A DNA stretch of 64,000 nt from contig CAYOTA010000001.1 in NCBI GenBank assembly GCA_964406795.1, positions 5,383 to 69,382 on the forward strand, given 5' to 3'. A model generated the notes under the pieces. It was not told the origin of the DNA. It made no database searches and was given only the letters and a program-made list of their open reading frames with translations. Origin of the DNA: an uncultured Gammaproteobacteria bacterium. Lineage in GTDB: Bacteria; Patescibacteriota; Microgenomatia; Levybacterales; GWA1-39-11. Both the position numbers and the translations under genes were made by a program. Shown one piece after another: positions 5,988-64,000 of this stretch; the stretch's first letter is position 1, and the number at the start of each line of letters is the position of its first letter.

Positions 5988-5989
5988 CT

Positions 5990-6508
5990 TTATCTTAGTG
6001 TTCTTATGTCTACTGCATCGTCAATTTGTTTTTTTATATTGAGCAGAAGTGGTGCTTTCTTTTCATCTTGCCATAAAAATTGGGTGGGTAATTTAGGTAA
6101 TAATTCAGTCAATAATTCTACATGTTTTAATGACGCTTCATTGTATGTTTTTTGTATCACCGAAATGTTCTTCTTAGACTCTTCTGCGGATTGTACCGAT
6201 GCATATGAATTTTTAAAATACATATTTGAGTTTTGAAGAGATTGAAGTGCTAAGGGATATTGGTCATACTCAAAAAGTATTTTTGCCTCAATTAAATACT
6301 TGTCTGCTTGAGCTAGATTGTATTTAAATTGTGCAATATCACCAAGGGTGTAAAAATACTTTGCACGGTCTAATAAGTCTGAAAGCAAATAAAGCTTATT
6401 ACCCGGCATTACACCCGGATAGGGCATGACATATGAAGACTTCGCATATACAGATGTGACACTCACAAAGAAAAAAAGAGTTATAAAAAATACAACAATT
6501 TTGCTCAT
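5990..6508 (-). CDS. Secreted or membrane-anchored hypothetical protein.
   Basis: The ORF track gives 5990..6532. An internal ATG at 6506-6508 forms an ATGA overlap with the galE stop codon. It also yields a classic signal peptide / N-terminal anchor 'MSKIVVFFITLFFFVSVTSVYAKSS'. The rest of the protein is helical and Lys/Glu-rich. No recognised domain. Confidence 0.45.
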   Translation of the reverse strand: MSKIVVFFITLFFFVSVTSVYAKSSYVMPYPGVMPGNKLYLLSDLLDRAKYFYTLGDIAQFKYNLAQADKYLIEAKILFEYDQYPLALQSLQNSNMYFKNSYASVQSAEESKKNISVIQKTYNEASLKHVELLTELLPKLPTQFLWQDEKKAPLLLNIKKQIDDAVDIRTLR

Positions 6509-7476: not shown

Positions 7477-8249
7477 ATTTTTGAACGTACGTACAATATA
7501 TATGATACAGGAAACCTAAGTGCTGAGAAAAGGGAGAATATAAACCCTGGCCACAAATCCATAAAACCTTTATGTCTTCCAAACGTCCATAAAAACCACC
7601 ATGCTGGCTTAAAAAGGAGATATGAGAAAAAGGCCCATATCTTATAACGTATTGATGCTTTTTTAAGTTCTTGGGCAATTTGATCCGATGCAAAAATATT
7701 ATATCTGCTCCATTTTGAAAGATATGCGGAAAAGTTTTTATAGGGATTATGAAGAAGCGCTTCTTTTAAATACTCAACCTCACCATCCACAACCGCTTGC
7801 TCATGAACGTCTTTTTGCGGAAGCCTTCCCTTGCCATTTTTATATAATCTAAGCGTATAGTCAGGGTATTGGCCACCTTTCATTAAAAACCTTCCTAAAA
7901 ACCAATTTTTGCGTGGAATCCAATAACCGTTAACCTTACCTACATTATTATCTATCTTTTCGAGAATCTCTTTTTTTAGTCCTGGAGACACTTTTTCATC
8001 GGCATCAAGTTGCAATATCCATGGGTACTTACAACTATCAATAGCAATTTGCTTATTGATGTGAAAATTCTTATTATTTGGCTTACTTATGACCTTGGCC
8101 CCCAACTCTCGAGCGAGTGCAGGAGTACCATCTGTGGACTCCCCATCCACTATTACTATTTCGTTAGCAAAATCTTTTAGTGAATCCAAGCACGTTTTAA
8201 TGTTTGAAGACTCATTGAATGTAGCTAGCGCAACTGATAACCTACCCAT
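7473..8249 (-). CDS. GT2-family glycosyltransferase (paralog group with 21558.. and 27232..).
   Basis: 'LSVALATFNESSNIKTCLDSL...IVIVDGESTDGT' GT-A N-terminus and the DXD motif 'LQLDADEKV'. The C-terminal 'YWIPRKNWFLG' block is shared with the two paralogs. Confidence 0.8.
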   Translation of the reverse strand: MGRLSVALATFNESSNIKTCLDSLKDFANEIVIVDGESTDGTPALARELGAKVISKPNNKNFHINKQIAIDSCKYPWILQLDADEKVSPGLKKEILEKIDNNVGKVNGYWIPRKNWFLGRFLMKGGQYPDYTLRLYKNGKGRLPQKDVHEQAVVDGEVEYLKEALLHNPYKNFSAYLSKWSRYNIFASDQIAQELKKASIRYKIWAFFSYLLFKPAWWFLWTFGRHKGFMDLWPGFIFSLFSALRFPVSYILYVRSKI

Positions 8250-8280
8250 ATGTTAATTATACATTTTAAAAACTCTTATT

Positions 8281-8916
8281 TCATGGTTTGCGCACCTTGA
8301 AAACCATTGCCATGCCTAGATTAAATCTTTTTTGAGATTCTATCTCAAAGCCTGATTTTTTTAGAAGTTTATAAAGTTTTTTAACCGTAAAGGAGTGTAG
8401 ATGGGAGTGATTCCAGACACTACCCTTACTAAGTCTCCACAAAAACCAAACCACTGAAAAAAGCAAACTTCCTGAATCGAGCTCAATTACAAGAATTCCA
8501 TTTTTTTTTAAAACTCTTTTTATTTCAGTCAAAACCAAACCCGGATCATCTACATGCTCTAGAACTTCAGTGCTAATAACTAAATCAAAGGTTTTTGTCT
8601 TGTATGAAATGCCGTGCGCGTCGCCAACCTTCAAATGCAGAGAGGGGTATTTTTTTGAACCATATTCTATTCCTTTTTCATGTATATCAATTCCATAACA
8701 CTCAGACTTAGAATATTTTCCTTTAACTTGTGACAAAAACCAACCAGACGCACAACCCACATCGAGTATTTTTTTAGGTTCCTTATCTATTTGAGATAGT
8801 ATTGCTTTTAATTTTCTGGTGTGCCAAGTTCTTTGAAAAAAATTATTTTTTACACCTCTTTGGTAGTAATCAGGAGGAACTTGCTCAATAACATCATTGT
8901 GAATATGCCGCTTCAT
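8281..8916 (-). CDS. Class I SAM-dependent methyltransferase.
   Basis: Motif I 'ILDVGCASGWF'. Motif post-I is an acidic residue followed by 'YGIDIHE'. The 'LVISTEVLEHVDDP' block is typical of UbiE/SmtA-like MTases. Substrate unknown; possibly sugar O-methylation given the context. Confidence 0.75.
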   Translation of the reverse strand: MKRHIHNDVIEQVPPDYYQRGVKNNFFQRTWHTRKLKAILSQIDKEPKKILDVGCASGWFLSQVKGKYSKSECYGIDIHEKGIEYGSKKYPSLHLKVGDAHGISYKTKTFDLVISTEVLEHVDDPGLVLTEIKRVLKKNGILVIELDSGSLLFSVVWFLWRLSKGSVWNHSHLHSFTVKKLYKLLKKSGFEIESQKRFNLGMAMVFKVRKP

Positions 8917-8997
8917 TTTAATGTGGTTAGTATATCATTATTCAAATTAACTTGAAACGTAGATATAAAACGAGATTTACCTACATTTGTGGATAGC

Positions 8998-10512
8998 TTA
9001 TCTTGCTCTTTGCTGAACTTTAATTCCTCCTTTGATTACCTTTTCTTTCACAACCTTCCCGTCATTTTGACGTATCTTAAGCCAATCTTTTACACGCCCT
9101 TCATACCCAGGGTCAGGTTCAATAATTACATAAAATAAATCCTTAGCTTCCTTGGATGGAATATAACCATACTGTTTTATCCCATACCAAGAGAACAAGT
9201 ACTGATATGGATAATCATGAACAGCGGGAGTATAAACAATATAATTAAACTTCCTTCCATTTGCGTCCTTATAGATATAATCAAGTACCGCCGTTTGATT
9301 CCTATAAACCGCTGCATTCCCCTCCCACAAAGGAGCTTGTATATTTTTTATGATATCCAGTGGCTTTAATAAAAATAGTAAATATAAAACTAAAACTACT
9401 ATACCAACAAGCATGTTTTTTTTGAATAAAGATTGAAGTGCAATCCCTACAAACAGTATGTATAAAACAGGCAGAGCTACTATATAATGTCCCCATATTG
9501 CTCTGTCAAATATTGACGTTCCAAATATAAATACAAAAATAATGATTACTTCAAATAAAAGAAGCCTTTTACACGCGTCTGGAATTTTTTTAAAAGATAA
9601 AATTATAATAAGTAAGATTAAAAACGCTACGCACACACCCATGATGAAGTTATTTAGTGAGACCGTTTCTGAAAACTGATTTAAGATTGTTATAAGCCTA
9701 TTTGGAATCTCAGGCAAAAATGTAGATAAAGAAATCAGTCCTTCTCCGTTTTCCTTGGGAGTAATAATTGTTTTTGACATAATAAAACCATGACGAAACT
9801 CAAATAGAATACGGGGAAGAAATGTAATAAAAAGGCCAATAAAGACGCCAAAAAAACTTAGGTTAAAAAGTTTTTTTCTGTATTGAATCAGTAGCCCAAT
9901 CATTATTCCAGTAGCAAATAAAATGCCAAACAGTATTTCTGAATCAATAGTAAGTCCAAGCAGTAAACCAAGCATTATATAGAGTAAAAATTTTCTTTTT
10001 GCCAAAAAAAGCTTTTCAAGAAGTATAAATATGCAAAGTACAAAAAATGGGGCAATATTAGGATTCCATATCTGATTAGAATAACCTATCATAACCGGAG
10101 AAAAACCCATAATGGCTGCCAAAATAATCCCAAGCATTCTTCCCCATAAAAGCTTGCCTAAAAAGTAGCTAGCTAGAACCGCACCTATCCCCACAATCAT
10201 CATAAAAAAAACAACTCCCTGGGGATTACCCTGGGAGAGCACAAACGAAGGGGTAAGTATGTAATACCACCATGGACCATAAAACAAACCACCCAACCCG
10301 GTAGTCTGCCCTATTAATGGTATGTCGCCATTTATTACGATTTCTTGTACTTTTAATAAGTCGCGCCCAACATCATATGTAAACGCATACGAGTTGGTTA
10401 AAATACCCTCAATCCGGAGAAAAACCCCAATACTAAACACGAAAAATAAAGCTATAATTGTTGCCAAACTTTCACGTGATAACTTTTTTATCTTTTTCTT
10501 TATTTTATTCAT
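8998..10512 (-). CDS. Polytopic membrane protein, family D (paralog of 44919..46496), putative GT-C-type.
   Basis: 504 aa. N-terminal loop 'YDVGRDLLKVQEIVINGDIPLIGQTTGLGGLFYGPWWYYILTP' parallels 'YDQARDVVIAGDIWKGDLKILGPNSDINGLHHGALYWYLISP' in 44919... The C-terminal 'LFYVIIEPDPGYEG' parallels 'LFLILEPSGGIPDF'. Confidence 0.45.
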   Translation of the reverse strand: MNKIKKKIKKLSRESLATIIALFFVFSIGVFLRIEGILTNSYAFTYDVGRDLLKVQEIVINGDIPLIGQTTGLGGLFYGPWWYYILTPSFVLSQGNPQGVVFFMMIVGIGAVLASYFLGKLLWGRMLGIILAAIMGFSPVMIGYSNQIWNPNIAPFFVLCIFILLEKLFLAKRKFLLYIMLGLLLGLTIDSEILFGILFATGIMIGLLIQYRKKLFNLSFFGVFIGLFITFLPRILFEFRHGFIMSKTIITPKENGEGLISLSTFLPEIPNRLITILNQFSETVSLNNFIMGVCVAFLILLIIILSFKKIPDACKRLLLFEVIIIFVFIFGTSIFDRAIWGHYIVALPVLYILFVGIALQSLFKKNMLVGIVVLVLYLLFLLKPLDIIKNIQAPLWEGNAAVYRNQTAVLDYIYKDANGRKFNYIVYTPAVHDYPYQYLFSWYGIKQYGYIPSKEAKDLFYVIIEPDPGYEGRVKDWLKIRQNDGKVVKEKVIKGGIKVQQRAR

Positions 10513-43990: not shown

Positions 43991-44929
43991 GTGTCTTCTT
44001 TTACAAGTGGTATAATATACCACATGAAACACCAAGTACTACTTTACTATAAATATGTAGAGATTAAAAATCCTGAGCGTGTACGTGATACACAGAAAAC
44101 ACTGTGTGAAAAACTAAGTCTCAAAGGGCGCATTATTGTGTCATCAGAGGGTATCAATGGAACGCTAGAAGGAACACTGGAGAATACTGAAAAATATATA
44201 GAGAAAATGAACCAGGATTCGCTTCTAAGTGACATAAGATACAAGAAAAGTGAAGGTACCGGCGACGCATTTCCTAAGCTAAAAGTAAAAGTAAGACCAG
44301 AGATTGTAACGGCCCATTTACCAACACTCAACCCAAACAAAACAACAGGTAAATATCTGAGTGCGCAGCAGCTTCATCAATGGTATGAGGAAAAACGTGA
44401 ATTTTACATAGTGGATATGAGGAATGACTATGAATATGCATCAGGCTATTTTGAGAATTTTATACCCTCAGGTCTTCACAATTTTTTTGATATAAAAGAT
44501 GTAATTCCAAAACTTGCTCATCTAAAAAACAAGACTATAGTTACCGTGTGTACGGGTGGCGTAAGATGTGAAAAAGCTTCCGGATTCTTAGTGACAAACG
44601 GATTTAAAGATGTGTATCAGCTAAAAGATGGCATTCAAACCTACATGGAATTATTTCCAAACAAACATTTTAAAGGAAAGTTGTATGTTTTTGATAATAG
44701 ACTAACGGTGGGTTTTAATATTGACTCAAAAGACCATGTGATTGTAGGAAGCTGTAGGGATTGCGGGATTAGCTGCGACACCTATGTGAACTGTGAGTAT
44801 GACATGTGTCACCTCCACTACATTTGCTGCAATAATTGCCTAGACTCAGAAACCGGACTTGCGTTTTGTAAAGCAGAATGTAAAGAAAATTACAAAAAAT
44901 TCCAACTTCTTAAAACTGCTACTGCTTAA
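43991..44929 (+). CDS. trhO: Rhodanese-domain tRNA U34 hydroxylase (UPF0176/YceA family).
   Basis: 'YYKYVEIKNPERVRD...LSLKGRIIVSSEGINGTLEG' N-terminal domain. Rhodanese active-site loop 'VTVCTGGVRCEKASGFL'. C-terminal Cys-rich tail. 312 aa. Confidence 0.75.
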   Translation: MSSFTSGIIYHMKHQVLLYYKYVEIKNPERVRDTQKTLCEKLSLKGRIIVSSEGINGTLEGTLENTEKYIEKMNQDSLLSDIRYKKSEGTGDAFPKLKVKVRPEIVTAHLPTLNPNKTTGKYLSAQQLHQWYEEKREFYIVDMRNDYEYASGYFENFIPSGLHNFFDIKDVIPKLAHLKNKTIVTVCTGGVRCEKASGFLVTNGFKDVYQLKDGIQTYMELFPNKHFKGKLYVFDNRLTVGFNIDSKDHVIVGSCRDCGISCDTYVNCEYDMCHLHYICCNNCLDSETGLAFCKAECKENYKKFQLLKTATA

Positions 44930-46496
44930 TTATTTCGTGAACTTCTTCCATTAAAAATGGTTTATCTAGGGTTATAACACGTTTTTGAACTCTAAATTCT
45001 CCGAATTTTTCTTCCTTAATAACTTTTGAACGCGTATCTTCAAATTCCAAAATGCCTTTTACAAAAAAGTCTGGTATTCCACCACTCGGCTCTAGTATCA
45101 AAAATAAATATTTATCTGAATTTTTAAAATCTGGACTATATTTTATGTTTTCACCAAATCTGCCGTCTTGTGGATACCCCCAATAAAATGGCATATATCC
45201 ATATGTGTTTTTTCCATACGTATCAAATAAAACACTCCATGTTGTGTTTACAAACAAAGGGTTTGTGATGGTGTTAATTCTAAATGGTTTATAATTTGCT
45301 TCTTTATATATCCAGTCCAGAATTTTTGTTTCAGCACTATATATCATATCTTTTTGAACAGAAAACAAAGCCTCCCCTTTTCCTTGATTTTCAGCAAGGA
45401 GGTAAATGTTGCTAGCAACTATTATAGTTATTACTACAAACCATGGGAGCTGATTGGCAGGCTGTGCAAAAACCTTATATATATAGTAGGAAACAAGCAT
45501 ACTAAGCGGCACGGCACACCCAATAAATACAAAGTAAATATTGGTTGACCCTACAAAAAACAAAAATACAGGTGTTATAAACCAAAGTAGTAAGAAAAAT
45601 ATTCGTTTGTCTTTTAAAATAAAGATTAAAAATAAACTAACGAGTATAAACGCGTACATGAAAATATGAGAAAATCCATTACTTGATAGTATATTGTAGT
45701 ACGGCACTAAAAATAATTTTTCAGACGCACGTGATAACATCTCCCCAACCGTCTGCCCCCTGGACTCTGCGTATCCGGTAAAAAATTCCATAATACCTCT
45801 ACTTCCCCTAAAATCAAACTTAATTTCGGCTAGAATAAGTGGTGATGCCACCGCCAAAAAAACAAATGCAGATAGCAGTATGTCTACAATTTTTATTTTT
45901 CTATACACTAGTAAAATAACTAAAAATATAGCTGCCTGGTATAAAAGGAAAATTTGAAATTGAATAGATAGCGCCCAGAAAAATGCAGTAAGTAAAAGCC
46001 CCCATTTATAATTTTCTTTTACATACATCCACAAGAATAGAAATGATAATGCAATGGTTACCATAGCAAGTGAAGGGTTAGACAACCATCTACTGTATGA
46101 AATTACTTCATATGACACGGTTATTAAAAATGCCGAACTTAAAGCAATTTGAGTATTTCCAAAAATCTTTTTTGATAATACATACGTAATGGGAATTATA
46201 AGTAAACTTGCAAGAATTAAAAATAATTTTACGGCAAAAATACTGCCTTCTGAAAAAACGTAAAATGGGGAAATAAGATACCAGTAAAGTGCTCCGTGAT
46301 GAAGTCCGTTAATATCTGAATTAGGTCCCAGGATTTTTAAATCACCCTTCCAAATATCTCCTGCAATTACGACGTCCCGCGCCTGATCATATCCAAAAGT
46401 TATATCAGTAAATGAGTGAGTTCGTAATACAAATCCAAGGATAACCATCCCACAAAGAATCCAGAAGAGCTCTTTATGCAATAATTTCATTTCCAC
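44919..46496 (-). CDS. Polytopic membrane protein, family D (paralog of 8998..10512), putative GT-C-type.
   Basis: 525 aa. Shares the 'YDQARD...GPNSDINGLHHGALYWYLISP' loop and the C-terminal 'YLFLILEPSGG' with 8998... Confidence 0.45.
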   Translation of the reverse strand: MEMKLLHKELFWILCGMVILGFVLRTHSFTDITFGYDQARDVVIAGDIWKGDLKILGPNSDINGLHHGALYWYLISPFYVFSEGSIFAVKLFLILASLLIIPITYVLSKKIFGNTQIALSSAFLITVSYEVISYSRWLSNPSLAMVTIALSFLFLWMYVKENYKWGLLLTAFFWALSIQFQIFLLYQAAIFLVILLVYRKIKIVDILLSAFVFLAVASPLILAEIKFDFRGSRGIMEFFTGYAESRGQTVGEMLSRASEKLFLVPYYNILSSNGFSHIFMYAFILVSLFLIFILKDKRIFFLLLWFITPVFLFFVGSTNIYFVFIGCAVPLSMLVSYYIYKVFAQPANQLPWFVVITIIVASNIYLLAENQGKGEALFSVQKDMIYSAETKILDWIYKEANYKPFRINTITNPLFVNTTWSVLFDTYGKNTYGYMPFYWGYPQDGRFGENIKYSPDFKNSDKYLFLILEPSGGIPDFFVKGILEFEDTRSKVIKEEKFGEFRVQKRVITLDKPFLMEEVHEIIKQ

Positions 46497-46963: not shown

Positions 46964-47035
46964 GGCCCCATCGTCCAGCGGTTAGGACACCAGATTCTCA
47001 TTCTGGTAACCGGGATTCGATTTCCCGTGGGGTCA
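46964..47035 (+). tRNA. tRNA-Glu (anticodon CUC).
   Basis: Manual cloverleaf fold. Acceptor stem GGCCCCA/TGGGGTC with one G-U pair. D-arm GTCC-AGCGGTTA-GGAC. Anticodon stem CCAGA/TCTGG with loop TTCTCAT (U33, CTC, A37). Variable loop TAAC. T-arm CGGGA-TTCGATT-TCCCG. Discriminator A. 72 nt, no encoded CCA. Confidence 0.8.
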
Positions 47036-47210
47036 CATATCTTATAGTATTCCTACCAGACCTGTTGGGTATATTCGATTAGGTTGATAAGGCTTGCTAA
47101 ATTAAATCAAAGTCATTCGAAAATCGTTTCAAGAGCCTGTAATAGTAATATTTACCCCTCAAAAAAGGCTATTAAGCCTACGAGAAAAACACCTGAGTTA
47201 GGATTTGCGG

Positions 47211-48542
47211 TTATTTTTCAATTATTATCTCTCTTTGAGATAGAATGAATTTAGTTTTGATAAAAGATAATACTTCCAGTCGTTCTTCCGCTGTTCCAAT
47301 CTGTAAGATATGGAGGAGATAGTTTTTCATCATTTCATTCTTGTCATTTCCACTTTCCGGAATCCTATTAAATTCAGCTAAGTATCCGTCAATAAATTCC
47401 TGATGAAGTACTTGAGTTTTGAGTCTATGATAGCGTTCTATATCTTCTTGGATTTTCCTTGTGATTCCGGAGGAATTAAATTTAATAACATTTATCTTTG
47501 CGATGAGTTGTTTGATGAGATCTGCTTCCGTAATGTATGGCTCGTCACATTCAAAGTCACGAGATCTTCCACAATGATAGTATATATGTTTTACAATCCT
47601 TCCATTTAAGAGTTTTCTGTATTTCTCCTCAGCTGTAATCCCTCCCCCACATTTTCCGCATCTAAAGATCTTCTTGAATGGAAACAGTTTATTCTTATAC
47701 CCCTTATCTGGTTGTATTTGAAGATGTAGTTGGGCTTTATCAAATAATTCTTTTGTAATGAGTGCTTTATGTTTTCCTTTGTACCAAGTACCACTTCCGA
47801 TTGGAAACTCAAACTCACCATAGTAGAATGGGTTTTTGAGAGTTGCATAGACTTTACTTAAAGCAAGTCTTTTGCCAGTTCTTGATTCAAAACCAATCCT
47901 ATCAAGCCACATCTTTATTGTTCTGCCTGATTGTCCTTGGTTTGCCATTTTGTCAAATATCTGTCTTACAAAGTTTTCTCGTTCAGGGTCGACAACTATT
48001 AACTCCGTTGTTGCGGGATCTCCACTTTGATTTAGATATCCAACTGGAGCAATAGAAGGACGCCAACCCATCAGACACTTTGCTCGCATACCTCTTTGAA
48101 CATTTAAACCTTTATTGTCATTTTCAAGTTTTGCTTGGGAACATAAAATCATCAATAGGAATTTTTCATTTGGATTATTAGAGAAGCTCTGAGAGTAGGT
48201 TTGAATTTTTACTAGCTTTCCCTGATCCATAAGGTCAACTACTGATCCCAAGTCTCCAGCATTTCTTGAAAGTCTGTCCGGTGCCCACGTAAGAATCGCA
48301 TTAAATTTCTTCTGTCTTACTTCTTGGAGAAGTTCCATAAATACAGGACGAGTGCCGGAGGACTTTGCAGAGTGACTTTCTTTTTTGACTTCTTTAATCT
48401 TTAGTTCATCTCGCTTAGCAAGTGTCATCATCTCATCAATCTGAGAATCAATTGACATAGTCTGTCGCTCATCCGATTCGCTTGATTTGCGGGCATAAAG
48501 GCAGTATTCGAGTGATATCTCTGGCTTTGTGTTGTAATCCAT
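47211..48542 (-). mobile_element. Large serine recombinase (resolvase/invertase-type catalytic domain, recombinase domain and zinc ribbon), putative integrase of the adjacent mobile element.
   Basis: Catalytic motif 'CLYARKSSESDERQTMSIDSQ' (Y-R-S...Q of the serine recombinase active site). 'VFMELLQEVRQKKFNAILTWAPDRLSRN'. Cys-rich zinc ribbon 'FRCGKCGG...YYHCGRSRDFEC'. The start was moved from the track ATG (48659) to the internal ATG at 48540-48542 (MDYNTKPEISLEY...); the track's 39-aa leader is Cys/Trp-rich and atypical. The 3' end lies 175 nt from the tRNA-Glu 3' end. Confidence 0.8.
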
Positions 48543-48609
48543 TTCAGGGTAGAAGGTACCGCAGAAAGACCACGAAGTCCAGTAGGAAAATGGCTTAAAT
48601 GCTTTAACT

Positions 48610-48810
48610 TTATACCTGCTTTTTCTCTTTTCTATCCTTCCACCACACAAAACCTGCAACGACTAATAAGACAATACCAAACAAACTATGCGCCAAATGA
48701 TTAACGCCAAGTCCAATTGCCTCGTGATTTAGAGGTAAGGGATATCTGTGATCGAGTAAGAAATAAAGGCCTGCAATAATTAAAATTATAATGGTAAAAT
48801 GCTTCATCAT
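48610..48810 (-). CDS. Small membrane protein (66 aa), hypothetical.
   Basis: 'MMKHFTIIILIIAGLYFLLDHRY...IVLLVVAGFVWW' gives two hydrophobic helices. Located between the recombinase and the HxlR gene. Coding status uncertain. Confidence 0.3.
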   Translation of the reverse strand: MMKHFTIIILIIAGLYFLLDHRYPLPLNHEAIGLGVNHLAHSLFGIVLLVVAGFVWWKDRKEKKQV

Positions 48811-56233: not shown

Positions 56234-56788
56234 TTACATTCCAAGATCGACAAGGATGTTTTTATTGCTATAGAAACTCGCATTGTATTGAAGTTTTAGA
56301 CCTATAGCTGTTGTTGGTACTTCAAATCCAACCCAATCTGTTTTCTTAGCATTGGCAATCAATGCTCCATCCAGACCTAAAGATCCTGCGTTTTGCATTC
56401 TCTTTCCTGTTACAGCAACTTGGTACTGATTATTGTCACTATCTATGACAAACATCTGACCCAAGGTCGTTATGTACTCTTGATTTGATCCTGTGTTCTC
56501 AATTGTCATGTTTACATCAATCCAATGATTAACCTCTGATGGTTTTGTAAATTGACCAGCAGTTGAAGTTTCTACCTTATTTACAGTCAGGATAATATCT
56601 CCCATTTGTACCTTGTCTCCAACTTTATACGTTTCTTGAGTTGGTTGATTATTTTCAGTTGTAGTTTTTGTAGCAGTAGTATCAGAATTTGATCCTACCT
56701 TTTTACTACCACTTCCCATACTTCCAATAACACCAATCACTATAATGACTAATAAAGCGATTCCTCCCCATTTAAGTAATTTCTTCAT
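56234..56788 (-). CDS. DUF4352-like secreted / N-terminally anchored protein.
   Basis: Signal/anchor 'MKKLLKWGGIALLVIIVIGVIGSMGSGS'. A Thr/Ser-rich linker. Then a beta-rich domain 'YKVGDKVQMGDIILTVNKVETS...NQYQVAVTG'. The pattern is common in mobile elements of monoderm bacteria (DUF4352 assignment from memory). Confidence 0.5.
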   Translation of the reverse strand: MKKLLKWGGIALLVIIVIGVIGSMGSGSKKVGSNSDTTATKTTTENNQPTQETYKVGDKVQMGDIILTVNKVETSTAGQFTKPSEVNHWIDVNMTIENTGSNQEYITTLGQMFVIDSDNNQYQVAVTGKRMQNAGSLGLDGALIANAKKTDWVGFEVPTTAIGLKLQYNASFYSNKNILVDLGM

Positions 56789-56923
56789 ATTCCACCTCCT
56801 TTCTTATGGCTATTGATGACATATTACTTATATTTAAGCACAAAGTCAAGGCTAAATAAAGCGTCAGACGCTATACAATTATTCTTCCATTTTAACTACC
56901 TTTATATAGTGAGAACTTACAAA

Positions 56924-57118
56924 GTGAATGAAAAATTAGGTAAGAGGATTAGGAGAGCTAGAAAAGATAGGAAAATTACCCAAGAGGAGCTAGCTGATAG
57001 GGTGGATCTCCACTACACAACCATAAGTAGGATTGAAAGAGGTATAAGTAATCCTCCCGTTCAAACTGTCAGCAAGATTGCGAAAGCGTTAAAAGTTTCT
57101 TTATCAGACCTCTTCTAG
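56924..57118 (+). CDS. XRE-family helix-turn-helix transcriptional regulator (about 64 aa).
   Basis: 'LGKRIRRARKDRKITQEELADRVDLHYTTISRIERGISNPPVQTVSKIAKALKVSLSDLF' is the canonical Cro/C1-type HTH. The track ORF starts at 56813 with a 37-aa non-HTH leader. An in-frame GTG at 56924 gives the typical length; the start is uncertain. Confidence 0.7.
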   Translation: MNEKLGKRIRRARKDRKITQEELADRVDLHYTTISRIERGISNPPVQTVSKIAKALKVSLSDLF

Positions 57119-57129
57119 CTTTTTCTAAC

Positions 57130-58653
57130 TTAGAATTTCATATCCATAGTAAAAAATGGAGTTGACATATCAACCCTCTCTCCCGCAAAATCTACGTAAA
57201 TAGGGCCACTCGGTTCGGAATTTTCCCAGTTAGTTTTGTAATATGGCCTGTCGCTTTCGATTGATTTTATTATCAATGTGGAAAATCCATCTGCTAAATC
57301 CTCGTGCTTTTCAATACCAAAATTAGTAATCTGTGAAATTAGTTCTGCTGCTCCATAGCGTGGGAATAATACTTTTCCACTTTTAATGTATGGTGTTGTA
57401 ATACTTAACCTTGCGCTCTTGTCTAGACCATTCACGCTTACCGGCTCTGCGAATAATTTCTCAACAATTAGTTGCTGAACGACTGCTAATTGGTAGGCAA
57501 CATTCTCGACAAAGATAATTGGCTGTCTTTTAAACTCTAATTGCATACGAGTGCTCATTTTTTTAATTTCATCGATTGTTTGTGGGTAAGTTAATCTCTT
57601 GTTAACAATATAAGGCAAGATGTATATCTGAAGGGTTTCACCATAGCCAACAATGTAGGCCGGGACTAGCGTTGTAAAATCTGCTGTAGTTTTCTGAGAA
57701 ATCGCCAGATCCACTCCAACAGCGAGCAACCGGGGTGGATCTTCTCTGATATCCGGAAGACTATCGTAAAACTGAATCCATTCTTTTTTTACAACCCTAT
57801 CCTCGTCAGCGATAATCTTTAGAAGATACTCGCGAAACCAAGCTGATTCATTTGGAACTTTACTTTTTAATTGTTCTATCTCAACAAGGGAAGGGAATTT
57901 TGACTTCCAGAGAATATTATTTTTATCATCAAGTAATGGATACTCGCGATATTCCCCATCCATCGTACCGTTAATCAAGCTCTCTTTGACACGCATCATT
58001 AGGGAATCTTCATGCAACATATTCCCAACGCAAATTAGTTTTGTACCACTATCTCCTATAGGAATTACCTCTCCTGTCAGCCAATTCCAAATTTTATCCC
58101 GTCCTTCCTTTGTTTTGACAGTTTCCAGATCCTCCACGTCATCAAGAACTGTTAGGTCAGGACGGTACTGCCTATGCCTTAGTCCTCGGATACTCTCACT
58201 TGCTGAAATTGCAGTTATGCGACTCCCGTACTGGGAAATAACCAAAGAGTTTGCTCTCCACTCATCAGCCACTTCACTAAATGGTCCAAAATCTTTAATG
58301 AGTAATTCATTTGATTCAAATTCCTGTTTTATGTTTGCAAGGATTTGTCTAGACAGTCCTTGAGTTTGACTTACTAACAAAATGTACTTTTTTGAAAGCA
58401 TTCCAATCATTGCCCAAATGGGATAAGAAAGTGTCGCAATGGTTGATTTTGCGGATCCACGGAAGGCTACAATTCCGACCGTCATTACGTCCTGGTCTTC
58501 AAGGAGAGCAAACATTTCTTTGTGAAAATCTGCTGTTGGGTAAAGGATGTAATGACTGAAATAGGTATGGAAAAACCAAAAAAAGCTTTTCTTAACTAGG
58601 GCTTTCCGAAAAGTTTGATCGTTTAGTATTCGATTAAATATTTCATCATTCAT
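57130..58653 (-). CDS. Phage terminase large subunit (TerL).
   Basis: ATPase Walker A 'VAFRGSAKSTIA' and Walker B 'LTVLDDVED'. C-terminal RNase-H-like nuclease beginning 'LLAVGVDLAISQKTTADFTTLV'. 507 aa. Confidence 0.7.
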   Translation of the reverse strand: MNDEIFNRILNDQTFRKALVKKSFFWFFHTYFSHYILYPTADFHKEMFALLEDQDVMTVGIVAFRGSAKSTIATLSYPIWAMIGMLSKKYILLVSQTQGLSRQILANIKQEFESNELLIKDFGPFSEVADEWRANSLVISQYGSRITAISASESIRGLRHRQYRPDLTVLDDVEDLETVKTKEGRDKIWNWLTGEVIPIGDSGTKLICVGNMLHEDSLMMRVKESLINGTMDGEYREYPLLDDKNNILWKSKFPSLVEIEQLKSKVPNESAWFREYLLKIIADEDRVVKKEWIQFYDSLPDIREDPPRLLAVGVDLAISQKTTADFTTLVPAYIVGYGETLQIYILPYIVNKRLTYPQTIDEIKKMSTRMQLEFKRQPIIFVENVAYQLAVVQQLIVEKLFAEPVSVNGLDKSARLSITTPYIKSGKVLFPRYGAAELISQITNFGIEKHEDLADGFSTLIIKSIESDRPYYKTNWENSEPSGPIYVDFAGERVDMSTPFFTMDMKF

Positions 58654-59077
58654 TTATTTTCTCCGTATCCATAACTTTTGCAGGAATTAGTGATGCCATT
58701 TCTAAAGCTTTTCTTATAAGAGCTTCCTGTTCTGGCGTTAGATCTTCATCAAGTTGCTTTGCGATTGTCATAACCTCAACTTTTGTAGTGTACTTAGGGT
58801 GGTGGTGCTTAAGCCAAAAAGTAATTGCAGTAAGGTTTTTATCCCTTATTGCACTCATAAGTTGTGACTCTGCCATGTCGTTTACTAATAGCGAACCGTC
58901 AGATATTGCTTGGTCTGTGTTTTTCGCAAATTCGATATCGTCTTTTAGCCACCTGTAATAAGTAGCTCGACTGACTCCCGATTTATCACATGCAATTTGC
59001 ACGATGGGGGTTTTTCGTAAATGCTCGATAATTTTACTTTTTTCGCCTGATTGTCTTTTCTGAATTGTTTTATCCAT
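58646..59077 (-). CDS. Putative terminase small subunit (HTH DNA-binding protein).
   Basis: 143 aa. 'IVQIACDKSGVSRATYYRWLKDDIEFAKN' HTH. It lies immediately upstream of terL with an 8-nt overlap, the usual terS-terL arrangement. Confidence 0.5.
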   Translation of the reverse strand: MDKTIQKRQSGEKSKIIEHLRKTPIVQIACDKSGVSRATYYRWLKDDIEFAKNTDQAISDGSLLVNDMAESQLMSAIRDKNLTAITFWLKHHHPKYTTKVEVMTIAKQLDEDLTPEQEALIRKALEMASLIPAKVMDTEKINE

Positions 59078-60404
59078 GAATTTTTTCTGCTTTCTGTCCT
59101 GTTAACTTTTCCCACCTTTTTATAATTACTTCGGAATAAACAGGCGATTTTTCCATCCCATAACATCGGCGATTCATTTTTGTCGAGGCGATTAATGTAC
59201 TGCCGCTTCCGGAGAAGGGTTCTACCACTAAATTGCCACGTTTTGTCAGCATTTTTATGTACGGGATTAATATCTCAATAGGTTTGGTTCCAAAAATTAC
59301 CCCTTGCCCGGAATGTTTCTCGTCGGAAGCTACGTACTCGATAAAATCGGTTGGTTGGTTTTTCTTACCCCTTTGGTACCCTTCCCAATGTGGCTTGCCT
59401 GCAATGGCGTAGAGTGCTGTTTCATACTCTTCTTGCAGTCCATCTACCTCTTCCTCTAGATTAAAGGGAATATCTTTATCCGGGGACGCGCCAACCATTG
59501 CAATATCATGCTTTGAAAAGAATTTGTATTTGGCTGAAAAACCTTGATGCCTATTGGGTAAATGCCAAACAATCATATTTTTTACTTTCCAATGTTTCTC
59601 AAGTTCTCCCCAAATGACACGAAGGTTTTTCCAATTTTCGTAGACAATTATGCTGAAATGTTCGTTTTGTACTTTTGAGATGTTAGCCATCCATTTTTCT
59701 GTAAAGTCAGGTGGTAAAACGTCTGTTTCTAAATAGCGTCTGTCTCTTTTTGCACCAAAACCAGTTACCGCATTTCCATGTTTTTTCTTTCCATTTAAGT
59801 AATCCAAAATGTAAGGGGGATCAGTAAAACACATATCGGCTTTCTCGCCATTCATTAATTTCAACATGTCTTCTTCTATGGTCGAGTCTCCACACATCAA
59901 CCGACTATCGCCCAAAGAATAGACATCACCTTTTTGGGTATTAATCTTTTGAATATTCAATTTCTGAAGTTCTTTTTCAAGATCAAATTCCTCCGGAGAG
60001 ATATCGAGCTTAAAAATATCATCAAGTTCGTCTGTTGAGAAACCAACATCTGAAAGAAATGACTCGTCAAACTTGGCAAGCAAATCCCAATCAAACTCTC
60101 CAGTATTTTTATTCAACCGCAAATTCAGCTCTTTTTCTTTCTCCAGATCGGGAATATCAACATATACTACAGGTACCGTCTTATATCCCAGTTGCTTGGC
60201 CACTTCCCATCGGAAATGACCACCTATGATGGTGTTTTTACGATCTGGCGAAGAGTTGGCTATAACCGGATCTACAAGTCCAAAGCGTAAGATGCTTTGC
60301 TTAAGTTGCTCAGTAGCCTCTTCATCATGTTTACGAGGGTTATAGTCCGCTGGTATTAAATCGTTAGTTGGAACATCAACTGTCTGGATGGATATGCTTT
60401 GCAT
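59070..60404 (-). CDS. ParB-like nuclease domain fused to a DNA N6-adenine / N4-cytosine methyltransferase (beta-class amino-MTase).
   Basis: N-terminal ParB/Srx box 'IIGGHFRWEVAKQLGYKTVPVVYVD'. Catalytic motif IV 'CFTDPPYILDY' followed by AdoMet motif I 'VVEPFSGSGSTLIAS'. The order IV then I marks beta-class N6A/N4C MTases. Confidence 0.75.
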   Translation of the reverse strand: MQSISIQTVDVPTNDLIPADYNPRKHDEEATEQLKQSILRFGLVDPVIANSSPDRKNTIIGGHFRWEVAKQLGYKTVPVVYVDIPDLEKEKELNLRLNKNTGEFDWDLLAKFDESFLSDVGFSTDELDDIFKLDISPEEFDLEKELQKLNIQKINTQKGDVYSLGDSRLMCGDSTIEEDMLKLMNGEKADMCFTDPPYILDYLNGKKKHGNAVTGFGAKRDRRYLETDVLPPDFTEKWMANISKVQNEHFSIIVYENWKNLRVIWGELEKHWKVKNMIVWHLPNRHQGFSAKYKFFSKHDIAMVGASPDKDIPFNLEEEVDGLQEEYETALYAIAGKPHWEGYQRGKKNQPTDFIEYVASDEKHSGQGVIFGTKPIEILIPYIKMLTKRGNLVVEPFSGSGSTLIASTKMNRRCYGMEKSPVYSEVIIKRWEKLTGQKAEKIHG

Positions 60405-60465
60405 AGCCTATTTATATACGAGCTTGATAAGAAGGTCATGGAAGGTTTAGAAATTCCTTAAGCTC

Positions 60466-61167
60466 TCAAATTAGATTTAGTTCACCTAGATTTCTTTTAC
60501 ATCTGGTGATTATTGTTCCCACCGATTCATCTATGCTTTTTCCTGCTTCTGATTTTTCAACTATCTTCTTGAATTCTGGATGCTCCACAAGTCTCTTATA
60601 TATAGATTTTGAGTTACCCTTTTTGATATTCAGATATAGCTCGTAAATTACGAAATCACGCTCAAAAGTTTTCCATTCACGGTTTCTTTTTCCACCTTTA
60701 TATTCAACCAGCTTCTGTTGTTCAGCCTCTATCTTTTCCCAAAGTCCATCAAAAACGTCTTCCTTTATGGTCCATGGATAAATTGTGAGGCTAACTTTGA
60801 CTGATTGTTTATCATTCAAAATACCAATTTGTTTTCCATGAGTAAATTTAATGGGGGCTTTCTTCTTGCCAAAATATATATACCACTGTAATCCAAGTTG
60901 AAATTTGTCTTTATCCTCTTTCTTTAGGTTGAATTCCTTAATGACACTATCAATAAAGCCTTCGTAGTAAATATCTTTAGCATGAGCCTTGATGCTCCAC
61001 TCGTGGTATTCCTTAGCAGTCTTGAACCCATCAGGAGGAAACAGGAGTCCTTTTGACTTCATTTCCTGCGTAAATTTATCAAACAAGAGATTAAATTTTT
61101 TTGAATTCAAAACAGCCTGAAGCGTATAGAAATCGTTTTCAAATAATATTCTTGTGTCTTTAGCCAT
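60466..61167 (-). CDS. Hypothetical protein (233 aa), unknown function.
   Basis: Lys/Glu-rich, soluble. No recognisable catalytic or DNA-binding motif. Divergent from the HNH gene. Confidence 0.4.
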   Translation of the reverse strand: MAKDTRILFENDFYTLQAVLNSKKFNLLFDKFTQEMKSKGLLFPPDGFKTAKEYHEWSIKAHAKDIYYEGFIDSVIKEFNLKKEDKDKFQLGLQWYIYFGKKKAPIKFTHGKQIGILNDKQSVKVSLTIYPWTIKEDVFDGLWEKIEAEQQKLVEYKGGKRNREWKTFERDFVIYELYLNIKKGNSKSIYKRLVEHPEFKKIVEKSEAGKSIDESVGTIITRCKRNLGELNLI

Positions 61168-61239
61168 ACAAACTACTTCTATTGTTTAGTTGAACTAAAA
61201 TATGTAAAATCATGTTAACAAATAGTAAATTCTAAAACA

Positions 61240-62853
61240 ATGAAAACAGAAGGTAAGATTCCAGAAATATCATCAATGGATGATATTGTAAAACCTCAAA
61301 AATATGGTGACGACAGAAGACCTTGGAATGAGGCATTTGTTTCCTATATGCAACAACTGGTTGAGCATCCTAATTTTGCAGGGATGCCTTCTGCGATCGA
61401 TGATGATGGGAGAATAAGATGGAATGCTCCTTCGAACAGGCCTCCAGGTAAATGGCAAGACTTAAGAGATAGACGACTTTCATGGTGGAGAAAAAAAGCA
61501 GATGAGCTAGGTATCGATCAAAATGGCAAGTGGATTTCTAAAGTGGTAAAAGTGATACATCCATTTCAAGAAAAGCCATGTCAAACTTGTGGCAGAATGA
61601 TGTCTTTAAGTTATGTTTATCCAACAAAAAATGCACTTAAAAAGATTAATACAGCATTAGGTGAAAAAGACCAAATTCAATATGATATTTTTTTGAATAT
61701 TTATGAGGTCACTCAATATCTAGAAGATAAGCTAGGGAAGGACGGATTAAATATACTTGAAAAGCTTTTTCCTCAACTTAAAGAAGTTCAGGAAAAAAAT
61801 TCAAAGGAAATTATTGAATTTTTAGCGGAGAAAATTGTACCGATGGAACCAAAAGGGATATTGAGCCCTGGCTCTATGTCAAATGCTCCAGACAGACTTG
61901 ACGGTTTTCATACATACAACTTGTGCTGTAGACATCGTCAGGACACAGGAAGGTCATCCGATAACCTAAGAACATATAGCGACGATCGTAGAGCTTTCGA
62001 ATTTTGGTGTGAAGGAGATTGGGCAGCAGCTAACTTGCTTATGACTTTAGGTACTGAAGGTATTTGTCCTGAATGTGGCCGAAAAGCCTTAATGACTGCT
62101 GATCATATCGGACCTATCTCTTTGGGTTTTACACATCGACCACGCTTCCAACCAATGTGCGGTAGTTGCAACAGTTCTAAGGGAAACCGATTGAGCCTAA
62201 AAGATGTGAAAGAATTAATCAAAGGCGAATCGCTCGGTGAAATCGTTGTATCCAGACAAATAAATAAGCTATGGAATTTAGTAAAAGGCAAAGTAAAGAC
62301 CAATGAAGAAGCGAACAAACTCAGTAAATTGTTAAGGATTAATCAACATTATTATTTACTAATTTTGAAAGAAATTTACGATCTTGGTTATCCAGATTTG
62401 TTACTTTCTTTTTTGAATCCCGAACTAGCTGATGAGAAAATTGATTTTGAAGAGTTAGATGGAACAAACTTTCAGTATAAAAAAATTAGTAAGTCAAAAA
62501 GGCAAGATACATATTCAGAAAGTAAGGCATGTAGAATGATAAGAATTGCATTTGATGCATTAGATGACTATGCCTCAAAGAATAAAAGGAATATTCATTT
62601 AGTTCCTGAGGAAATAACCAACCCATCTCATGAGAAAATTATTCAATCTCTTCCTAGTGATAGGACTAAAGGATCTTTACGTTTTGAGTTTCTAGAAATA
62701 CTCAAAAGTCCAAAAGATGGAGAAGAACGATCGGCTTTACTTCAAGTATTATTTAAGGGTGTTTATCCAAAACTAAATGATCCAAAAGATTTTTATGATG
62801 CCGTTCAAGAATACAATGACAAAGTGGGTGAGTATTTAAGTAATTCTTTTTAG
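61240..62853 (+). CDS. HNH-motif nuclease, putative type II restriction endonuclease (537 aa).
   Basis: Zinc ribbon 'CQTCGRMMS'. Canonical HNH core 'CPECGRKALMTADHIGPISLGFTHRPRFQPMCGSCNSSKGNR'. Convergent with the C5-MTase gene, with an 18-nt tail overlap. Confidence 0.55.
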   Translation: MKTEGKIPEISSMDDIVKPQKYGDDRRPWNEAFVSYMQQLVEHPNFAGMPSAIDDDGRIRWNAPSNRPPGKWQDLRDRRLSWWRKKADELGIDQNGKWISKVVKVIHPFQEKPCQTCGRMMSLSYVYPTKNALKKINTALGEKDQIQYDIFLNIYEVTQYLEDKLGKDGLNILEKLFPQLKEVQEKNSKEIIEFLAEKIVPMEPKGILSPGSMSNAPDRLDGFHTYNLCCRHRQDTGRSSDNLRTYSDDRRAFEFWCEGDWAAANLLMTLGTEGICPECGRKALMTADHIGPISLGFTHRPRFQPMCGSCNSSKGNRLSLKDVKELIKGESLGEIVVSRQINKLWNLVKGKVKTNEEANKLSKLLRINQHYYLLILKEIYDLGYPDLLLSFLNPELADEKIDFEELDGTNFQYKKISKSKRQDTYSESKACRMIRIAFDALDDYASKNKRNIHLVPEEITNPSHEKIIQSLPSDRTKGSLRFEFLEILKSPKDGEERSALLQVLFKGVYPKLNDPKDFYDAVQEYNDKVGEYLSNSF

Positions 62854-64000
62854 GAATTCTTCTGGCGATATCTTATTTCTCATTAAAGCTTGATAGTCAT
62901 TTTGGGGTTCACTTATATAATCTTTTTCACTTCCATCCTCTCCATGACCCAACGACGGTAAATCACTAAGTGCATCTTCAGCAGAAATAAATTTTGCGTT
63001 AATATCTTTAAGATCAAAGATTTTTTGAAGAGGACTAATTGCGCTGCTTCCCTCTCTTTTTCCTACCAAGACAATTCTTTTTCTTCTTTGTGGAACGGCA
63101 TACTCTTCAGTGCTAATTTTCCATATAGAAAGAGTATCTATAACGGATTCCAGAGATTCTTTAATCTCCTGGAAAAATTTGCCCTTCTCCATACTTAACA
63201 TTCCCATTACATTTTCAAATACAAATCCATCAGGTTTAAGAACCTCGACTATTTCTTTATAATTGTTAAATAGACTATTTCTTTCATCCTCTCGAGATCT
63301 TTTATTTCCCGCTGTAGAGAAACCCTGACAGGGTGGCCCACCCAGAATATAGAATGGTTTGTCTTTATGTTTTTTTCGTATCTCATTCACTTGCTTCACA
63401 AGTTCATCAAATACTGGTCTATCACGAATGTCGCCAACAACTACATTAGGGTGAATATTTTTTGCATATGTTTTTAAAAAAACTCCATCAATATCATTAG
63501 CCACAATTGACTCCCATCCTGCCCATTTAAATCCAAGCGAAAGCCCTCCTGAACCAGCAAACAAGTCAACAAAAATGCCTTTGCTGTCTATGTGTTTTGC
63601 TATTTGATATGCAAGAAGGGGTGGAACTGCATTTCCTATTTGTTTATTAATACTAGTCTTGGAACCAACAAATTCAAAATCATCAGGAAAGCTTTGTAAA
63701 CGAGCTGCTTCTCTCTGGGAAATTAAACGATGCTGATCTTTTGCATAGTGAATAAAACAGCCATTGCCAGGACGATTAAAATAAGTGCTTATTGTATATG
63801 CTGGTTTATTAGGTAGAAGTCTTCCGTAGTATGTAGAACGGCTCCCACTTCCATTCTCAAAGCCAATTCTTATTTGTTCTAGACGCTTTGATGGTATCGA
63901 AGTAGGAATATTTTTCCAGTTCCCACCTGGAGGAACATTCTTAACCATTCTTACATCTAAGTCGCTTAATTTTGCTGAGTAATGATTTTTTATCATATAG
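62836..64000 (-). CDS. DNA (cytosine-5)-methyltransferase, circularly permuted motif order, 5'-incomplete at the window edge.
   Basis: Motifs in the order IX 'AYTISTYF' - X 'NKQIGNAVPPLLA' - I 'DLFAGSGGLSLGF' - IV 'GGPPCQGFSTAG' - VI 'FVFENVMGM' - VIII 'QRRKRIVLVG'. The reading frame is open to position 64000 (no stop upstream of the ATG at 63994-63996), so the N-terminus may lie outside the window. Confidence 0.75.
   Translation of the reverse strand, partial: YMIKNHYSAKLSDLDVRMVKNVPPGGNWKNIPTSIPSKRLEQIRIGFENGSGSRSTYYGRLLPNKPAYTISTYFNRPGNGCFIHYAKDQHRLISQREAARLQSFPDDFEFVGSKTSINKQIGNAVPPLLAYQIAKHIDSKGIFVDLFAGSGGLSLGFKWAGWESIVANDIDGVFLKTYAKNIHPNVVVGDIRDRPVFDELVKQVNEIRKKHKDKPFYILGGPPCQGFSTAGNKRSREDERNSLFNNYKEIVEVLKPDGFVFENVMGMLSMEKGKFFQEIKESLESVIDTLSIWKISTEEYAVPQRRKRIVLVGKREGSSAISPLQKIFDLKDINAKFISAEDALSDLPSLGHGEDGSEKDYISEPQNDYQALMRNKISPEEFLKRIT

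Follow-up and report, generated by a model that had tools for sequence, protein, structure and literature searches.

A probable three-gene type IIS restriction-modification system of the Eco31I/BsaI family at the edge of the backbone of a phage-like element

What is encoded by the two convergent genes at the right-hand end of this stretch of DNA, and how do they relate to the phage-like genes next to them? The window (the whole stretch that was analysed, 64,000 nucleotides (nt) of contig CAYOTA010000001.1) ends in a gene for an HNH nuclease that faces a gene for a cytosine methyltransferase (MTase). A first-pass annotation had read these as a putative type II restriction-modification (R-M) pair, with an adjacent protein of 233 amino acids (aa) as a possible third component. 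With a probability of about 90%, we read the region as an intact three-gene type IIS R-M system of the Alw26I/Eco31I/Esp3I (BsaI/BsmBI/BsmAI) family, organised like Eco31I/BsaI: a restriction endonuclease (RE), a circularly permuted C5-cytosine (m5C) MTase, and an N6-adenine (m6A) MTase whose gene lies almost entirely beyond position 64000. The HNH nuclease and the assignment to type II (here type IIS) are therefore kept from the earlier reading, and the pair is replaced by three genes. The DNA itself shows to which families the RE and the m5C MTase belong, that their catalytic motifs are intact, that the two genes converge and that the 3' end of the m6A gene adjoins them. Table 1 lists the features; the three open reading frames (ORFs) of the first-pass annotation, on the minus, plus and minus strand, are exactly where it had placed them.

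Table 1. Features of the R-M region and of the adjoining backbone block (window positions)
Feature	Position	Strand	Remarks
TerL	57130-58653		backbone; phrog_38, E 2e-74
TerS	58646-59077		backbone
ParB_N + N6/N4 DNA methyltransferase fusion	59070..60404	-	444 aa; backbone; PF02195 + PF01555
233-aa orphan gene	60466..61167	-	first gene of the 233-aa/ParB-MTase/TerS/TerL backbone block; borders the cargo slot
Junction and probable RE promoter region	61232..61275	.	backbone homology ends at 61231
Type IIS restriction endonuclease, Alw26I/Eco31I/Esp3I family	61240..62853	+	537-aa ORF; PF09665, TIGR02986, PADLOC
HNH (beta-beta-alpha-metal) catalytic core	62065..62199	+	RE residues 276-320, CPEC...DH...CGSCNS...N; PF01844, PF14279
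Overlap of RE and m5C MTase 3' ends	62836..62853	.	18 nt; same 18 nt in L001, L002 and L003
Circularly permuted C5-cytosine DNA MTase, M2.Eco31I/M2.BsaI type	62836..63996	-	complete, 386 aa; PF00145, M.HaeIII and L015 alignments
Motif I-VIII block of the m5C MTase	63052..63570	-	residues 143-315; aligns with M.HaeIII 4-163
Motif IX-X block of the m5C MTase	63583..63756	-	residues 81-138, N-terminal; aligns with M.HaeIII 264-322
Last 8 nt (CT ATA TGA) of the upstream N6-adenine MTase gene	63993..64000	-	identical to the L003 junction

The RE is assigned to its family by three models. It matches Pfam PF09665 (RE_Alw26IDE) over residues 36-467 (E 4.3e-128; 429.1 bits against a cut-off of 23.1), NCBIfam TIGR02986, titled 'Alw26I/Eco31I/Esp3I family type II restriction endonuclease', over residues 31-451 (466.7 bits against a curated cut-off of 443.85), and the PADLOC REase_II model PDLC03469 over residues 25-507 (E 7e-147). 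The roughly 300 N-terminal and 200 C-terminal residues that had been described as uncharacterised are thus spanned by family models. Searching 5.8 billion proteins, we found 913 RE homologues at E<=1e-10, the majority of which span 96-100% of the query, and many of which are labelled Alw26I/Eco31I/Esp3I family in their sources. RE residues 17-378 are 42% identical to the Eco31I-type RE ORF of an E. coli locus (L015, from PLSDB match H2); the RE copy at that locus is shortened, which leaves the C-terminal third of the window RE outside the comparison. In the scan of genome contigs with the RE, a single relative was found, in a Candidatus Saccharibacteria metagenome-assembled genome (MAG; locus L012, 61% identity). 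RE-family relatives with 31-37% identity are also found on four giant-virus MAG contigs (L029, L030, L033 and L037; IMG/VR GVMAG), in three cases together with the convergent permuted m5C MTase.

The RE has a single HNH site in the middle of the protein, on which PF01844 and PF14279 agree (Table 1). An alignment of 36 RE homologues (41-91% identity) has 84 invariant columns, all of them present in the window RE by construction of the alignment. They include C114/C117, C229-C230, C276/C279, D288-H289 and C307/C310-N311; the invariant Cys pairs, D288-H289 and N311 form the HNH core and a zinc-binding frame, both of which had been recognised in the first pass. Besides the HNH core, the best-conserved stretch of the RE is residues ~209-246 (61840-61980), where S209-P210-G211...P217-D218-R219-L220-D221-G222-F223-H224...C229-C230-R231...G237-R238 are invariant and the predicted local distance difference test (pLDDT) score of the AlphaFold2 (AF2) model is below 55. 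Judging from the model, this stretch may be a loop that contacts DNA or metal and is ordered only upon substrate binding.

Structure prediction, which had been proposed for the HNH protein, gave an AF2 model with an overall pLDDT of 83.6 (below 50 for residues 1-15). Foldseek found no significant neighbour of this model in the PDB, and a sequence search found no PDB structure of the RE family; with no Foldseek match, the fold of the flanking domains cannot be named. Close relatives of the RE are 523-525 aa long, and the alignment with them begins at about residue 12 of the window RE. For this reason, and because of the low pLDDT of residues 1-15, translation probably starts at M13 (61276), which would give a protein of 525 aa and leave the first 12 residues of the ORF untranslated.

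The gene facing the RE encodes an m5C MTase with its motifs in permuted order. PF00145 matches it (E 1.8e-58) in two separate stretches, and two alignments with M.HaeIII, obtained from a phmmer search of PDB sequences, place motifs IX (RLQSFPDDF, residues 99-107) and X (GNAVPP, 121-126) before motifs I (DLFAGSGG, 144-151), IV (GGPPCQGFS, 219-227), VI (ENV, 261-263) and VIII (QRRKR, 303-307), which bears out the M.BssHII-like order proposed earlier. The catalytic residues (PCQ Cys, ENV, QRR) and the S-adenosylmethionine (AdoMet) motif FxGxG are all intact. Residues 1-384 are collinear with residues 8-390 of a 396-aa ORF at the E. coli locus (57% identity), whose N-terminus (MTKSETFMIPNHKAAKLSELDMM...) agrees with the M2.Eco31I gene in the supplement of PMC10810934. 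The PADLOC MTase_II model PDLC03381 gives the same collinearity (1-384 with 8-390 of 396; E 1e-154), and a 1036-residue PADLOC MTase profile, which looks like the fused m6A-m5C type, is matched at its positions 656-983. By these alignments, the window MTase is a direct homologue of M2.Eco31I that starts in the variable (target recognition domain) region. Permuted m5C MTases are known from the same family (M.Alw26I, M2.Eco31I, M.Esp3I, M2.BsaI, M.BsmAI and M.BsmBI), and their N-termini fall in the variable region, so that IX-X come before I-VIII (PMC5944983). Because the permutation is given there as a family property of the Alw26I/Eco31I/Esp3I enzymes, it is expected here rather than surprising.

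This MTase had been thought to run off the window edge; it is complete. The exact 386-aa protein from ATG 63996 has been called as a gene twice, on the source contig (150,903 bp) and on a contig from Logan (L013), its reading frame is open for only one codon further upstream, and its close homologues are all stand-alone proteins of 380-410 aa. In M2.Eco31I, the codon that corresponds to this ATG is the second ATG, and the enzyme shortened to that point stays fully active (PMC10810934). The gene does not continue upstream into a canonical I-to-X order either: the upstream ORF ends in a TGA that overlaps this ATG.

That upstream ORF is probably the third gene of the system. Its stop overlaps the m5C MTase start as ATGA, a junction found in the same form in the related locus L003, and the m6A and m5C genes are probably translationally coupled through this overlap. 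The Logan contig (~2 kb), which has no mismatch to the window over 1889 nt and reaches 133 nt further, comes from a second sample (SRR13608702), where the cassette is identical. Sequence past 64000 had been wanted for completing the MTase; these 133 nt hold no extension of it, and instead encode 46 C-terminal residues of an N6-MTase (ELAIEILVAKSYGFTRDDFENIIDAFPKIDDIYKEDLLNSRSWSTI, followed by the stop) that closely match the 564-aa N6_Mtase/Eco57I protein of L003. In the L003 protein, motif I (DPFCGDG) precedes motif IV (NPPW), and it is 36-47% identical to what remains of the M1 gene beside M2 at the E. coli locus.

The RE and the m5C MTase are convergent and their 3' ends overlap, with the 18-nt tail overlap correctly located in the first pass. 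The same gene order (m6A, m5C, convergent RE) is found in four related loci (L001, L002, L003 and L012), with an N6-MTase of ~565 aa, a permuted m5C MTase of ~385-390 aa and an RE of ~525-531 aa. Identity to the window is 83% for the RE and 89% for the m5C MTase in L001 and L002, and 90% for both proteins in L003. Scanning IMG/VR, we were able to identify 22 more loci with a relative of the RE (30-42% identity), and these viral contigs together with L001, L003, L012 and L015 formed a comparison set of 26 loci for tblastn. A collinear permuted m5C MTase, convergent with the RE, is found in 22 of the 26, and 13 also have the m6A gene. Four loci lack the m5C gene, and in three of these the contig stops a few hundred bases or less from the RE. 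Nine viral loci keep the m5C gene but gave no m6A homologue when searched with the L003 protein. In the E. coli copy, neither the RE gene nor the m6A gene is whole. The C-terminus on the Logan contig and the adjacent m6A gene in half of the related loci (13/26) therefore point to a three-gene system, like Eco31I/BsaI.

By analogy with the characterised members of the family, the RE monomer, consisting of a recognition part and the single HNH site, would bind an asymmetric GTCTC-based site (candidates are GTCTC and possibly GGTCTC or CGTCTC) and would nick both strands in turn just downstream of it, at 1 and 5 nt. PMC3664794, with reference to Jakubauskas et al. 2007 and 2008, describes one HNH site and sequential strand nicking for Eco31I. 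The permuted m5C MTase would methylate the inner cytosine on the GTCTC strand, and the separate gamma-class N6-adenine MTase the adenine on the GAGAC strand; two MTases would be used for protecting self DNA because the recognition site is asymmetric. The GGTCTC site of Eco31I/EcoMI is methylated in this way, on the cytosine of one strand and the adenine of the other (PMC4659465). The exact specificity (GGTCTC, CGTCTC or GTCTC) cannot be assumed, because the divergence from Eco31I is large. For the element, the cassette would most likely be a defence against phages or plasmids, or else an addiction module.

Several points weigh against an intact system of this kind. The m6A gene is seen only as its last 46 codons, on a second, identical contig, and it could be disrupted here as it is in the degraded E. 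coli copy. The depletion of the candidate site is modest: GTCTC/GAGAC occurs 40 times in the window against 58 expected (ratio 0.69; maximal-order Markov model on the whole window), the 7th lowest ratio of 512 pentamers, which agrees with a GTCTC core, lends it weak support and is not decisive alone. No ORF for a controller protein lies within 61168-61239, directly 5' of the RE, and a scan of 60300-64000 for promoters and terminators gave no more sites than shuffled sequence. Besides the mild depletion, the pentamer is strand-asymmetric, with GTCTC found 27 times and GAGAC 13 times on the plus strand. As to regulation, L003 has a 73-aa HTH_3 gene (5911-6132) directly upstream of its RE, in the controller (C) position, and no HTH_3 equivalent is found at the RE in the window, L001 or L002; regulation therefore differs among copies of the cassette.

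The strongest competitor to the intact three-gene system is a decaying, inactive remnant (for example an orphan MTase with a dead nuclease), for which the broken E. coli relative offers a precedent and the unseen body of the m6A gene leaves room. We consider it improbable: both visible ORFs are full length with all invariant family residues and catalytic motifs, an identical copy exists in the second sample, and relatives at 80-90% identity keep the three genes intact. Less probable again is a plain two-gene system, in which the HNH nuclease and the permuted m5C MTase act without a second MTase. The window itself shows just two R-M genes, and the nine viral loci that keep the m5C gene, with no m6A gene detected, would fit this arrangement, but the Logan contig shows an N6_Mtase/Eco57I-type C-terminus that ends in the ATGA overlap, the m6A gene is present in all four closest loci, and from what is known of the family an asymmetric site requires that both strands be protected (PMC4659465).

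The 233-aa protein had been offered as a controller or specificity factor, which would make a three-component system of a different composition. It is adjacent and divergent to the RE, 72 nt from the start of the RE ORF, and it has no known function in family searches. The first-pass annotation was right that it has no recognisable motif: no family was found in Pfam, NCBIfam, PADLOC or PHROGs (best PHROG E 0.007), none of the 16 homologous clusters has a Pfam match at E<=0.01, the protein matches no helix-turn-helix (HTH) family, and no relative was found in IMG/VR. The AF2 model (pLDDT 78.5; predicted template modelling score, pTM, 0.47) is mainly helical with one beta-hairpin, and has no fold match in PDB or BFVD. 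We tried its C-terminus (SVGTIITRCKR) as a sigma-70 region 4 and rejected this, since hhalign against E. coli RpoE aligned only 8 columns with 0.3% probability.

The gene context of the 233-aa protein speaks for another role. Its homologues are found ~60 nt upstream of, and co-directional with, ParB_N(-MTase) genes in five genomes (L004, L006, L008, L010 and L011), where they stand beside PLD-SNF2 helicase and MTase, SIR2-DUF87, or HEPN_AbiV genes, whereas the R-M-bearing L001-L003 have no counterpart and L012 has no relative. Homology to genomes without the R-M system covers the gene and stops at 61231. Because its homologues adjoin unrelated cargo, because the homology stops at that base, and because it is absent from the four R-M loci, the gene belongs to the backbone, where it borders a variable cargo slot, and is not an R-M component; with no HTH, other family match or sigma-region-4 similarity to set against this, a role as controller or specificity factor is very hard to credit. 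The protein is 56% identical to its orthologue in L006, while ParB-MTase is 94%, TerS 92% and TerL 97.6% identical; the gene beside the variable slot diverges far faster than its neighbours. Weakest of all is the idea of a homing endonuclease, or another non-restriction HNH enzyme, that lies beside the MTase by chance, which we give next to no weight: weak PHROG matches to generic phage HNH endonucleases cover only the ~50-residue core, against full-length matches to RE-specific models above curated cut-offs, so that the protein does not group with homing endonucleases, and a convergent pairing with a permuted m5C MTase that is kept in 22/26 loci.

How, then, is the three-gene system placed on the element? 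Using blastn, we found that window positions 56720-61231 align with L006 7952-12445 at 85% DNA identity, and that the alignment ends 9 nt before the RE ATG; the homology to L004 (7944-9645) stops at the same base, 61231. The conserved backbone block comprises part of a 184-aa gene, an HTH gene, TerL, TerS, ParB-MTase and the 233-aa gene. ParB-MTase had been counted with the R-M genes as a small defence cluster; it is instead a backbone gene, found at the identity given above in L006, a genome without this R-M system, and it belongs to phrog_498, a typical phage ParB-methyltransferase family (E 5e-85). Beyond the junction, and divergent from the 233-aa homologue, the slot holds different genes in different genomes: HTH_17, a PLD-SNF2 helicase and an Eco57I-like MTase in L004 and L006; SIR2-HTH, a DUF87 ATPase and two large ORFs in L008; and HEPN_AbiV with an NTPase in L010 and L011. 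Homology to the R-M cassettes of L001-L003 starts at 61297-61302, and the R-M DNA (61297-64000) is 80-87% identical to them, whereas the adjoining ParB-MTase region is just 67% identical. This difference, together with the lack of the R-M system in L006, indicates that the cassette has moved among related elements as a unit. By these comparisons, the R-M cassette is cargo of a variable slot that starts at 61232, beside the backbone block of an integrated phage-like element.

The integrated element seems to span from about 47 kb to beyond the end of the window, as suggested by a tRNA-Glu(CTC) gene (46964-47036) directly beside the gene of a 482-aa large serine recombinase (47211-48659), which is probably one end of the R-M-bearing element, and by GC, which is higher over 48-60 kb (0.37-0.41) than before it (0.33-0.35). 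Non-phage cargo (49240-55662) separates the recombinase from TerL: two NAD(P)H-binding proteins, a LUD-domain protein, an exporter of MacB/FtsX, ABC and HlyD type, and MarR. L006 has a similar set of MarR, HlyD-like and MFS genes beyond TerL. No capsid or portal gene is visible within the window. In L001, the m6A gene is followed on its far side by genes for a LexA/CI-like repressor and for a 1255-aa protein of phrog_18693, a phage family, and the rest of a prophage may therefore lie past 64000. A 198-aa LexA/CI-like repressor (LexA_DNA_bind + Peptidase_S24) is found directly upstream of the m6A gene in L001 (7688-8284), L002 (3337-3933) and L003 (862-1458), and one may also be present just beyond this window. 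In L012, three ORFs of 223, 167 and 229 aa precede the R-M genes (8039-9918), of which, by eye alone, the first two resemble TIR and the third GIY-YIG proteins, and a serine recombinase and TerL (42% identity) flank the R-M genes on their opposite side; the cassette thus seems to lie in a defence island of a related element here too.

Left of the element, positions 1-46.5 kb are chromosomal and carry one gene after another of the PMT_2/YfhO type, resembling membrane glycosyltransferases. The ORFs of 404-46496 form a long minus-strand run, mostly of 200-800 aa, and 11 sampled ones (including 44919-46496) gave five PMT_2, three YfhO and one glycosyltransferase group 1 match, as would fit a large locus of paralogous membrane glycosyltransferases. 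The named relatives of window proteins are from the Candidatus Saccharibacteria MAG and, for one protein, from a 'Patescibacteria group bacterium', and the host is probably a bacterium of the candidate phyla radiation (CPR) with a Patescibacteria/Saccharibacteria-type genome. It is possible, and for now doubtful, that the 233-aa/ParB-MTase/TerS/TerL block marks an undescribed family of phage- or satellite-like elements in such genomes, with the border at 61231 as a dedicated slot for the exchange of defence cargo and the fast-diverging 233-aa protein, linked to the slot, as a regulator specific to its lineage or as a factor for counter-defence or compatibility.

The closest known system is Eco31I (E. 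coli RFL31; the same as EcoMI of the ST131 strain EC958), with its isoschizomer BsaI, which has the same three-gene plan with the RE convergent with M2. In Eco31I/EcoMI, an m6A MTase with PF02384 and an m5C MTase are accompanied by an RE on the opposite strand (PMC4659465). At the protein level, identity to the Eco31I-type E. coli proteins is 57% for M2 and 42% for the RE, and for M1, taking the L003 protein against the E. coli remnants, it is 36-47%. The host differs, being a low-GC probable Patescibacteria here and an enterobacterium or Bacillus for Eco31I/BsaI, and so does the setting, a phage-like element here whereas Eco31I adjoins McrBC. M.BssHII, likened to the window MTase by motif order, was the first circularly permuted C5-MTase to be described. 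It belongs to a type IIP system with a palindromic site, whereas the window MTase is of the M2.Eco31I/M2.BsaI lineage. In both, the N-terminus falls in the variable region and the motifs run IX-X-I-VIII (PMC5944983). Alw26I, Esp3I, BsmAI and BsmBI agree with the window system both in the family of the RE (PF09665/TIGR02986) and in the permuted m5C module (PMC5944983). In the window, the m6A and m5C genes are separate and joined by the ATGA overlap. This is unlike the arrangement that Bitinaite et al. in 2002 are said to have reported for these four systems, in which the m6A and m5C domains are fused in one bifunctional protein. As to the slot, P2/P4-type hotspots and the cargo of phage-inducible chromosomal islands (PICI) likewise have a conserved backbone, a sharp break in homology and unrelated defence systems beyond it, in another backbone family than the one of 233-aa gene, ParB-MTase, TerS and TerL in CPR-type genomes; since only one flank is seen here, the slot is not proven to be a two-sided hotspot.

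Judged by its sequence, the R-M system is an ordinary and apparently intact member of a thoroughly studied family. It adds little to R-M biology, as the family, the HNH mechanism, the two strand-specific MTases and the permutation have been described since 1992-2007. BsaI, BsmBI and other enzymes of the Eco31I family are in daily use for Golden Gate cloning. The practical value of a diverged BsaI/BsmBI-family enzyme from an uncultivated low-GC lineage is modest, and the RE might have a variant specificity or an altered behaviour with temperature or salt. Mildly novel are only the fixed junction at 61231, where cargo is exchanged, and the orphan gene next to it, which evolves fast; for the biology of these organisms, the locus means that CPR-type genomes swap whole defence cassettes at one set position of a phage-like element.

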